DNA from: Escherichia coli 042
GTDB lineage: Bacteria; Pseudomonadota; Gammaproteobacteria; Enterobacterales; Enterobacteriaceae
Reading direction: 5' to 3' (one strand)
NCBI RefSeq assembly: GCF_000027125.1
Contig: NC_017626.1
DNA length: 64,000 nt
The translations under genes and the position numbers were made by a program. The notes under the pieces are model-generated. The model was given only the letters and a program-made list of their open reading frames with translations, made no database searches and was not told the origin of the DNA. Shown one piece after another: positions 47,392 to 52,395 of this stretch (positions within the stretch are counted from its first letter, which is position 1; each line of letters begins with the position of its first letter).

Positions 47392-47994
47392 TTAGTGGTT
47401 AACGAATTCCCCATCCAGATAAACTTTGCCTTTTTCCACATGCATGACTAAACCATCCAGATAATCAGGTTTAAATGTCGCATCACGCTTATCTTTAGCA
47501 ATATATGTCAGGCAATGATTATGGGTGAAAATAACGATATTTTTATCAGGCGCTTTGCTTTGTAAGTCCTTAATTGCACTATAAATCTCATTACCGCACT
47601 GAAGAAGTCGTTTATCTACCGTCAGCTTTTTACCCGCTGAAAACCAGGTCGCCGACTGAATGGTCCGGACGGTATTACTGGAATAAAGATCGAAATCAGG
47701 GATATCAGCACTAAAAGCGTTGCCCAGTTCACGGGCATCCTGGGTACCTTTGACCGTAATACCTGTTTTATCTGACAAGCATTGATTGGTTGAACGATCG
47801 CAACGTTCAGCATGGCGAAACAAAACGACAACCGGATGCTGCTGTGCCAGTCTGGCCAGCGTTTTATTGTCGATACGTGGCAAACCATTGCTACTCCAGG
47901 CGGCATGAGTACCCAGTCCGGCAATTGCAGCGAGCGCCAGTAAAATGATGAAATATTTTTTTGACTTCAACGAAGAGCGGCAAAAAGCTAACAC
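47392..47994 (-). CDS. ais: Lipopolysaccharide core heptose(II)-phosphate phosphatase Ais (PmrG)
   Basis: Histidine-phosphatase RHAER motif; signal peptide; start chosen to give 200 aa. Confidence 0.82.
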
Positions 47995-48186
47995 GTAAAC
48001 TCCACCTATAGACAAGCGCAACCAGACAATTACCGTGAAATTGAGCGACATTTCTGGCGATAATTAGCAGTTGGTGTAATATTAAAAATCCTGCGATGCC
48101 GGCAAAATGCCTCAAAATTTTGCCAAATGCAAAGCCTAAATAAGAAAAAATATAAAAATTTCAATATTTACGTCTAATATTAGTTT

Positions 48187-48203
48187 CTTAAGGTTAAGTT
48201 AAT
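48187..48203 (+). promoter_or_regulatory. PmrA box upstream of arnB
   Basis: CTTAAG-GTTAA-GTTAAT matches YTTAAK-N5-YTTAAK. Confidence 0.55.
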
Positions 48204-48283
48204 ATTCTATCCTTAAAATTTTGCTCCAAATGGCAAAATATACACAACACTCTTTATAGCAAATATAAGTGGACAGGTATTCA

Positions 48284-49441
48284 ATGGCGGAAGGAAAAGC
48301 AATGTCAGAATTTTTGCCTTTTTCGCGACCAGCAATGGGCGTGGAGGAACTCGCTGCAGTTAAAGAGGTTCTCGAATCCGGTTGGATCACAACCGGTCCG
48401 AAGAATCAGGCGCTTGAACAAGCCTTTTGCCAGTTGACGGGAAATCAGCATGCCATCGCGGTCAGTTCAGCCACCGCCGGAATGCATATCACGCTAATGG
48501 CGTTGGAAATTGGCAAGGGCGATGAAGTGATTACGCCTTCCCTGACCTGGGTTTCAACCCTCAATATGATTTCCTTGTTGGGTGCAACGCCGGTAATGGT
48601 GGATGTCGACCACGATACGCTGATGGTCACGCCTGAAGCGATCGAGTCAGCCATTACGCCACGCACTAAAGCCATCATTCCGGTGCATTATGCCGGTGCG
48701 CCAGCAGATATTGACGCCATTCGCGCCATTGGCGAACGTTACGGCATCGCAGTTATCGAAGATGCTGCCCATGCCGTCGGTACGTATTACAAAGGGCGAC
48801 ATATTGGCACAAAAGGTACCGCTATTTTTTCGTTTCACGCCATCAAAAATATTACCTGTGCGGAAGGTGGCCTGATTGTTACAGATAATGAAAACCTTGC
48901 CCGCCAGCTACGGATGCTGAAATTTCACGGTCTGGGTGTCGATGCCTATGACAGACAAACCTGGGGCCGTGCACCGCAAGCTGAAGTCTTAACACCGGGC
49001 TATAAGTACAATCTGACCGATATTAACGCCGCGATTGCCCTGACACAGTTAGCAAAATTAGAGCACCTCAACACCCGTCGGCGCGAAATTGCCCAGCAAT
49101 ATCAGCAAGCACTGGCAGCTCTCCCCTTTCAGCCATTAAGCCTTCCCGCCTGGCCGCACGTTCACGCCTGGCATCTGTTTATTATTCGTGTCGATGAACA
49201 ACGTTGTGGTATCAGTCGCGATGCGTTGATGGAAGCGTTAAAAGAAAGAGGTATTGGTACCGGGTTACATTTCCGCGCCGCTCACACACAAAAATATTAT
49301 CGCGAGCGTTTTCCCACGCTGTCGTTACCGAATACCGAATGGAATAGCGAACGCATCTGTTCGTTGCCGCTGTTCCCGGATATGACCACCGCCGATGCCG
49401 ACCGCGTCATCACAGCCCTTCAGCAACTCGCAGGACAATAA
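48284..49441 (+). CDS. arnB: UDP-4-amino-4-deoxy-L-arabinose aminotransferase (alternative start 48302)
   Basis: DegT/ArnB PLP aminotransferase. Confidence 0.93.
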
Positions 49442-50412
<971 letters not shown>

Positions 50413-50413
<1 letters not shown>

Positions 50414-52395
50414 TGAAAACCGTCGTTTTTGCCTACCACGATATGGGATGCCTCGGTATTGAAGCCCTGCTGGCTGCCGGTTACGAAATTAGCGCCATTT
50501 TTACCCATACCGATAATCCCGGTGAAAAAGCCTTTTATGGTTCGGTGGCTCGTCTGGCGGCGGAAAGAGGCATTCCGGTTTATGCGCCGGATAACGTTAA
50601 TCATCCGCTGTGGGTGGAACGTATTGCCCAACTCTCACCAGAGGTGATTTTCTCTTTTTATTATCGCCATCTTATTTGCGACGAGATTTTGCAGCTCGCT
50701 CCCGCAGGTGCATTTAATCTGCATGGTTCGCTGTTACCAAAATATCGTGGTCGCGCGCCGCTGAACTGGGTGCTGGTGAACGGTGAAACGGAAACTGGCG
50801 TTACATTGCACCGAATGGTGAAACGTGCCGATGCCGGGGCCATTGTGGCGCAACTGCGCATTGCCATTGCGCCAGACGATATCGCCATTACGCTGCATCA
50901 TAAGTTATGTCATGCCGCGCGCCAGCTACTGGAGCAGACATTACCCACCATTAAACACGGTAATATTCTGGAAATCGCCCAGCGCGAAAACGAAGCCACC
51001 TGTTTTGGTCGCAGAACACCGGAAGACAGTTTCCTCGAATGGCATAAACCGGCATCCGTGCTGCACAACATGGTGCGTGCCGTTGCCGATCCGTGGCCGG
51101 GTGCCTTCAGCTATGTTGGTAATCAGAAATTTACCGTCTGGTCGTCACGCGTGCATTCTCATGCGCCTGCAGCACAGCCGGGGAGCGTGATTTCTGTAGC
51201 GCCACTGCTGATTGCCTGTGGCGATGGCGCGCTGGAAATCGTCACCGGACAGGCGGGCGACGGCATTACTATGCAGGGCTCGCAATTAGCGCAGACGCTG
51301 GGCCTGGTGCAAGGTTCACGCTTGAATAGCCAGCCTGCCTGCACCGCCCGACGCCGTACCCGGGTACTCATCCTCGGGGTGAATGGCTTTATTGGCAACC
51401 ATCTGACAGAACGCCTGCTGCGCGAAGATCATTATGAAGTTTACGGTCTGGATATTGGCAGCGATGCGATAAGCCGTTTTCTGAATCATCCGCATTTTCA
51501 CTTTGTCGAAGGCGATATCAGTATTCATTCCGAATGGATTGAGTATCACGTCAAAAAATGTGATGTCGTCTTGCCGCTGGTGGCGATAGCCACGCCGATT
51601 GAATATACCCGCAACCCACTGCGCGTATTTGAACTCGATTTTGAAGAGAATCTACGCATTATCCGCTACTGCGTGAAGTACCGTAAGCGAATCATCTTCC
51701 CGTCGACTTCAGAAGTTTATGGGATGTGTAGCGATAAATACTTCGATGAGGACCATTCTAATTTAATCGTCGGCCCGGTGAATAAACCACGCTGGATTTA
51801 TTCGGTGTCTAAACAATTACTTGATCGAGTGATCTGGGCCTATGGCGAAAAAGAGGGTTTACAGTTCACCCTCTTCCGCCCGTTTAACTGGATGGGGCCA
51901 CGACTGGATAACCTTAATGCAGCGCGAATTGGCAGCTCCCGCGCTATTACGCAACTCATTCTCAATCTGGTAGAAGGTTCACCGATTAAGCTGATTGATG
52001 GCGGAAAACAAAAACGCTGCTTTACTGATATTCGCGATGGTATCGAGGCGTTATACCGCATCATCGAAAATGCGGGAAATCGCTGCGACGGCGAAATTAT
52101 CAACATTGGCAATCCTGATAACGAAGCGAGCATTGAGGAACTGGGCGAGATGCTGCTGGCGAGCTTCGAAAAACATCCGCTGCGCCATCACTTCCCACCG
52201 TTTGCGGGCTTTCGCGTTGTCGAAAGTAGCAGCTACTACGGCAAAGGATATCAGGACGTAGAGCATCGTAAACCAAGCATCCGCAATGCCCGCCGCTGCC
52301 TGGACTGGGAGCCGAAAATTGATATGCAGGAAACCATCGACGAAACGCTGGATTTCTTCCTGCGCACCGTTGATCTTACGGATAAACCATCATGA
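50413..52395 (+). CDS. arnA: Bifunctional UDP-glucuronate decarboxylase / UDP-Ara4N formyltransferase
   Basis: 660 aa; N-terminal formyltransferase, C-terminal SDR ([10 protein letters not shown]). Confidence 0.95.

Follow-up and report, generated by a model that had tools for sequence, protein, structure and literature searches.

A conserved direct repeat upstream of Escherichia coli arnB is very probably the PmrA (BasR) box of the arnBCADTEF promoter

We analysed a 64,000-nucleotide stretch of DNA from Escherichia coli 042 (the window) and found that the 17-bp direct repeat at 48187–48203 is very probably the PmrA (BasR) box of the arnBCADTEF promoter. The sequence, uniqueness, geometry and conservation of the repeat are observed here, and the binding mode, the dependence on PmrA and the inducing signals are taken from the literature. 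From these we infer that E. coli PmrA binds this exact copy and makes a class II contact with RNA polymerase. The element itself is already known. The exact 17-mer is in print as the PmrA motif at E. coli arn, where it was identified in the promoter of an EPEC strain (PMC10729948), and the motif CTTAA-N5-CTTAA was recovered from instances at udg, yfbE (arnB), yibD and yjdB (PMC1525208).

Sequence of the box and layout of the promoter

The sequence-only reading placed CTTAAG-GTTAA-GTTAAT at 48187–48203 of the plus strand, and the repeat is read at exactly that position. The promoter elements are as follows.

48187–48203, plus strand: PmrA/BasR box, CTTAAGGTTAAGTTAAT; exact to CTTAAG-N5-NTTAAT, conserved, and published as a PmrA motif
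48187–48192, plus strand: half-site 1 of the box, CTTAAG
48193–48197, plus strand: spacer of the box, GTTAA, 5 bp
48198–48203, plus strand: half-site 2 of the box, GTTAAT
48204–48213, plus strand: spacer between the box and the −10 hexamer, 10 bp; of the same length in each of the 70 loci with the box and TAnnnT
48214–48219, plus strand: predicted −10 hexamer, TAAAAT; T48214, A48215 and T48219 do not vary among five genera

The two half-sites form a direct repeat with an 11-bp periodicity. Experimentally verified Salmonella boxes have the form CTTAAG-N5-XTTAAT, with CTTAAG or CTTAAT as half-site 1 and XTTAAT as half-site 2 (PMC3973317). An exact match to CTTAAG-N5-XTTAAT is expected 0.03 times in the 64 kb and occurs once, at the arnB box. 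The fit to the PmrA consensus that was claimed earlier is thus exact for this form, but it is imperfect for the looser consensus YTTAAK-N5-YTTAAK quoted in PMC10729948, from which the box deviates by one mismatch (G for Y at base 1 of half-site 2). At this tolerance of one mismatch the looser consensus finds four matches in the window, compared with 3.18 expected. Since this count is near chance, it is uninformative alone, and we replaced it by the verified-box form together with conservation.

A consensus scan of the plus strand identified no sigma-70 −35/−10 pair in the region of the box and the −10 hexamer. The sequence 17 bp upstream of TAAAAT is AGGTTA, which matches the −35 consensus at two of six positions and leaves the promoter with no usable −35. 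The box stands in place of the −35 at a fixed distance of 10 bp from the −10, which is the layout of an activator-dependent promoter. If TAAAAT serves as the −10, the predicted transcription start of arnB is close to 48226, and the box extends from about −39 to −23 relative to it.

Gene boundaries and base composition

The earlier assignment of the flanking genes to a divergent ais–arnB pair is borne out by PGAP annotation of a record with 100% identity to 47900–48400, where ais (minus strand) and arnB (plus strand) lie either side of the box; the open reading frames agree. Of 5426 complete E. coli genomes, 5418 have a match to this 501-nt segment, several of them at 100% identity. Downstream of arnB, the PGAP gene order is arnC, arnA, arnD, arnT, arnE and arnF, followed by pmrD on the opposite strand.

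47392–47994, minus strand: ais (pmrG homologue), from PGAP and open reading frames; GTG start at 47994, 200 codons
48291–48296, plus strand: Shine–Dalgarno sequence of arnB, AAGGAA; invariant in nine sequences from five genera and followed by the invariant ATG 48302
48302–49441, plus strand: arnB (pbgP/pmrH/yfbE), from PGAP and open reading frames; first gene of the regulated arnBCADTEF operon
49445–50413, plus strand: arnC, from open reading frames and PGAP annotation of the identical record
50413–52395, plus strand: arnA, from open reading frames and PGAP annotation of the identical record
arnD to arnF: ending at about 55652, mapped from L001

Two in-frame ATG codons, 48284 and 48302, are available to arnB. 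ATG 48284 is not conserved across the five genera, and the conserved start of arnB is 48302. A distance of about 80–100 bp between box and arnB, as given by the sequence-only reading, therefore applies to ATG 48284 (81–97 nt) but becomes 99–115 nt when counted from ATG 48302. In the same way, the region 48052–48283 that it delimited is a product of taking the longest open reading frame on both sides, and the annotated ais–arnB spacer is 47995–48301. The flanks of the box were also described as very AT-rich, which is correct: 48052–48283 has a GC content of 29.3% (51.5% for the whole window) and is in the lowest 0.6% among 232-nt windows.

Three further observations concern the locus. Three of the seven E. 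coli genomes sampled, namely AR_0086, ST131 and clone D i2, have ATGGAA instead of AAGGAA at the Shine–Dalgarno position. The longest ais open reading frame extends to ATG 48051, beyond the annotated GTG 47994. Finally, E. coli 2017-19-1CC (NZ_AP027854.1; L088) carries an IS1 element 126 bp into the ais–arnB spacer, with a breakpoint equivalent to about 48120; the PmrA box, the entire arnBCADTEF operon and pmrD are absent, and menE follows directly. This strain looks like a natural arn-null strain.

Conservation of the box and the −10 hexamer

We fetched 80 arnB loci from other species and searched the 320 nt upstream of each gene; 79 loci, from Enterobacterales, had enough sequence. The pattern CTTAAK-N5-NNTAAN is found on the plus strand in 72 of these loci and on the minus strand in two, and composition-matched shuffles average 0.75. 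When the 10-bp gap and TAnnnT are added to the box, the pattern is retained on the plus strand in 70 of the 79 loci and on the minus strand in none (shuffle average, 0.07).

An alignment of nine sequences from five genera, with Escherichia, Citrobacter, Salmonella and Phytobacter among them, has 22 invariant columns upstream of 48284. Sixteen of these lie inside the 33-nt segment 48187–48219 (Fisher p = 2.5e-10), where CTTAA, TTAA, three spacer bases and the T, A and T of the −10 hexamer are invariant.

Within the species, 5230 of the 5426 complete genomes carry the 38-mer 48183–48220 without change. Seven spread E. coli genomes show 16 variable sites in the spacer and none in the 33-nt element; the difference is not significant in this sample (p = 0.16), and polymorphism within E. 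coli was therefore rejected as evidence of constraint. Position 48222, 3 nt past the −10 hexamer, is polymorphic, with T in the window, ST131, clone D i2 and AR_0086, and C in strain 6A, O157:H7 and NDM2. The 45-mer 48181–48225 is found exactly in 1789 E. coli genomes, and the T/C polymorphism probably accounts for this number being lower than that for the 38-mer.

In some genera, a second full box-like repeat (e.g., CTTAAGTGAACGTTAAT and CTTAATTTAACCTTAAT) lies upstream of the conserved box. The loci concerned are those of Phytobacter (L018 and L023, at −154 and −147) and Buttiauxella (L058, L060 and L062, at −288, −316 and −202).

PmrA control of the arn promoter

Binding of BasR in E. coli was reportedly described by Ogasawara et al. 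in 2012. We found no half-site mutagenesis of the E. coli arnB box in the literature. A study of ExPEC transcriptomes lists the arn operon as BasR-controlled and has it downregulated in serum together with ais, basS-basR, yjdB and ugd (PMC4145685). In MG1655, a P_arnB-gfp reporter is induced by iron with low magnesium and also by pH 5.8, and induction at pH 5.8 requires pmrA, pmrD and phoP (bioRxiv 10.1101/2020.05.05.080051).

Control by both PmrA and PmrD had been proposed from the sequence. The part concerning PmrA is supported by the layout of the promoter, its conservation and the pmrA-dependent reporter, whereas coupling through PmrD is only conditional in E. coli. It is seen only with added iron, acid pH or very strong stimulation of PhoQ, and earlier work had not seen it (bioRxiv 10.1101/2020.05.05.080051).

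Comparison with known boxes

The box of Salmonella enterica pbgP (pmrH/arnB), CTTAATGTTAATTTAAT, is located at the orthologous site in the pmrG(ais)–pbgP spacer, 115 nt before the conserved ATG, as in E. coli. The two boxes have in common the direct repeat, the 5-bp spacer and the 10-bp gap to TAnnnT, and they are one element by descent. Their half-sites differ (CTTAAT-GTTAA-TTTAAT in Salmonella and CTTAAG-GTTAA-GTTAAT in E. coli). Salmonella and Citrobacter possess an extra CTTAAx 8 bp before half-site 1, whereas the corresponding sequence in E. coli is degenerate (ATTAGT). PmrD coupling also differs, being robust in Salmonella.

Box1 of Klebsiella pneumoniae pbgP, CTTAATATTATCCTAAG, which our search recovered as one of the 70 loci with the box and TAnnnT, has been footprinted with PmrA and examined by NMR, in which two effector domains bind head-to-tail (PMC2565834; PMC3973317). 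It resembles the E. coli box in the core of half-site 1, the 5-bp spacer, the head-to-tail model and the 10-bp gap to the −10, but half-site 2 is CCTAAG in place of GTTAAT and, in the locus that we fetched (L036), the box lies about 171 nt before the start codon. In Klebsiella, the promoter additionally contains a PhoP box, and there is a second start site that depends on PhoP. We found no match to the PhoP box KGTTTA-N5-KGTTTA at up to two mismatches in 47995–48301 and thus rejected a PhoP box of the kind that gives direct control in Klebsiella and Yersinia. This agrees with a survey of PmrA and PhoP boxes across enteric species, in which the pbgP promoters of E. coli, Shigella and Salmonella are without a PhoP box (PMC2565834).

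A similar arrangement is known within the OmpR/PhoB family. The pho box of PhoB is likewise a direct repeat spaced by one helical turn that replaces the −35 and lies 10 bp before the −10, a comparison made in PMC3973317. The recognition sequence and the regulator are different, and the contact between PmrA and RNA polymerase at arnB would be the counterpart that we propose here. The pho box is bound head-to-tail by a phosphorylated PhoB dimer, which activates transcription by the class II mode.

Alternative readings of the site

An imperfect 27-nt direct repeat with the motif CCTYAAAATTTTG(..)CCAAAT(.)GCAAA flanks the box. Its copies, at 48110–48134 and 48211–48238, are about 101 bp apart (CCTCAAAATTTTG--CCAAAT-GCAAA and CCTTAAAATTTTGCTCCAAATGGCAAA), and the local alignment score of 31 is significant, as none of 1000 shuffles scored above 25. 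The downstream copy extends across the −10 and the predicted start of arnB, and conservation of the upstream copy is limited to genera with an adjacent ais. Each copy contributes to an inverted repeat of 7–8 bp (48101–48108/48117–48124 and 48218–48224/48233–48239). An RNA explanation was rejected: the spacer has no Rfam covariance-model match at E ≤ 1, and the predicted fold of the arnB 5′UTR shows no significant structure (z = −0.48). Reading the inverted repeat 48218–48239 as RNA was also rejected, since it begins upstream of the predicted start site. In Citrobacter R56 the pairing of 48101–48124 is lost while the sequence block is kept, which makes an RNA hairpin unlikely.

The box could be a docking site common to PmrA and the PmrA paralogue QseB that serves both ais and arnB, with a second, so far unrecognized control element at the 27-nt repeat. 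We regard this combination as conceivable, if rather doubtful.

A stronger role has been considered for QseB, in which the site acts mainly through QseB phosphorylated by PmrB, QseB activates arn and PmrA is a blocker. The authors of PMC10729948 propose that PmrA blocks rather than activates. In their experiments, QseB~P shifts a 60-mer identical to 48167–48226 of the window, which is the only in vitro binding that we found in the literature for this exact DNA, and in a double mutant lacking pmrA and qseC, arnB is overexpressed and the colistin MIC is raised 16-fold. In UPEC, QseB ChIP-on-chip recovers the arn promoter, and the arnB transcript is approximately 2-fold lower in a qseB mutant (PMC9882033). 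The box is unlike the QseB consensus cited in PMC10729948, GYRACAATWA-N4-TT: windows overlapping the box have four mismatches at best, and the best match in the 60-mer has 3–4. As the 60-mer contains no good QseB consensus, QseB~P may bind to the PmrA box itself.

These data are countered by the requirement of the MG1655 reporter for pmrA at pH 5.8 and by the PmrA-dependent distal promoter of Klebsiella pbgP, which has the same box and geometry. A box that replaces the −35 at a fixed 10 bp from the −10 is the layout expected of an activator, and PMC9882033 describes QseB as partly redundant with PmrA, not as its replacement. We therefore consider it improbable that the site acts mainly through QseB; the QseB-centred model with PmrA as a blocker is possible in part. 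The best match to the QseB consensus in the spacer is GCGATAATTAGCAGTT at 48057–48072, with one mismatch; the 60-mer of the EMSA is located 95 bp downstream of it.

The box might instead be part of the ais promoter on the divergent side and not of the arnB promoter, or be used by ais exclusively. It is the sole box-like sequence (up to two mismatches, either strand) in the 320 nt upstream of arnB, CTTAAG is palindromic, and the reverse reading of the box, ATTAAC-TTAAC-CTTAAG, has two mismatches; apart from this reverse reading, no separate PmrA box for ais is found on the minus strand at up to two mismatches. Moreover, a sigma-70-like −35/−10 pair running from 48176 to 48149 on the minus strand begins 11 bp from the box, and ais falls with the arn operon and basS-basR in the serum transcriptomes (PMC4145685). 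Nevertheless, the plus-strand orientation and the 10-bp gap to the −10 are kept in 70 species, ais lies within 1.5 kb upstream in only three of the 80 arnB loci, and the minus-strand pattern is confined to the two loci mentioned above. An assignment of the box to ais at the expense of arnB is thus very improbable, and its use by ais exclusively is unlikely, although the two genes may share it.

On the ais side, E. coli, E. albertii, Citrobacter sp. R56 and Salmonella share the conserved block 48104–48135 (AAAATGCCTyAAA...GCAAAG). In no other genus that we fetched is ais adjacent and divergent, and the block is absent in Citrobacter species without ais at this place. It may be part of the ais promoter or leader. 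Two ais promoters sketched by eye, a −35 TTGCAT with a −10 CATTTT in the conserved block and a −10 TAATAT at 48084–48079, were unconvincing and were discarded.

A chance likeness with no regulatory role, for which the 29% GC of the region and the near-random count of the loose motif would speak, has a negligible probability, since the verified-box form is expected only 0.03 times per window, the element is published, and the 70-locus layout and the 16 of 22 invariant columns in 48187–48219 concentrate conservation across genera on the box and the −10.

Proposed mechanism and significance

Our preferred reading remains that the repeat is the PmrA box of the arn promoter. PmrB would be stimulated by Fe3+, Al3+ or mild acid, and under some conditions PhoQ/PhoP and PmrD may reinforce the signal, with PmrD slowing the dephosphorylation of PmrA. 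Phosphorylated PmrA would dimerize through its receiver domains, placing its two winged-helix domains on CTTAAG and GTTAAT in a head-to-tail arrangement one helical turn apart. Because the box occupies the place of the −35, 10 bp before TAAAAT, we propose that bound PmrA recruits RNA polymerase (class II activation) to start transcription at about 48226. The products of the operon would then transfer 4-amino-4-deoxy-L-arabinose (Ara4N) onto lipid A, leading to reduced binding of polymyxin.

Since the element has been described before, the value of the present analysis lies in its confirmation. Modification of lipid A with Ara4N sets how well the cell tolerates polymyxin/colistin and cationic peptides of the host, both intrinsically and adaptively. 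The box, its 10-bp gap and its orientation precede arnB almost universally in Enterobacterales and are virtually fixed within E. coli, and with a layout this widespread, annotation pipelines can mark the box confidently.
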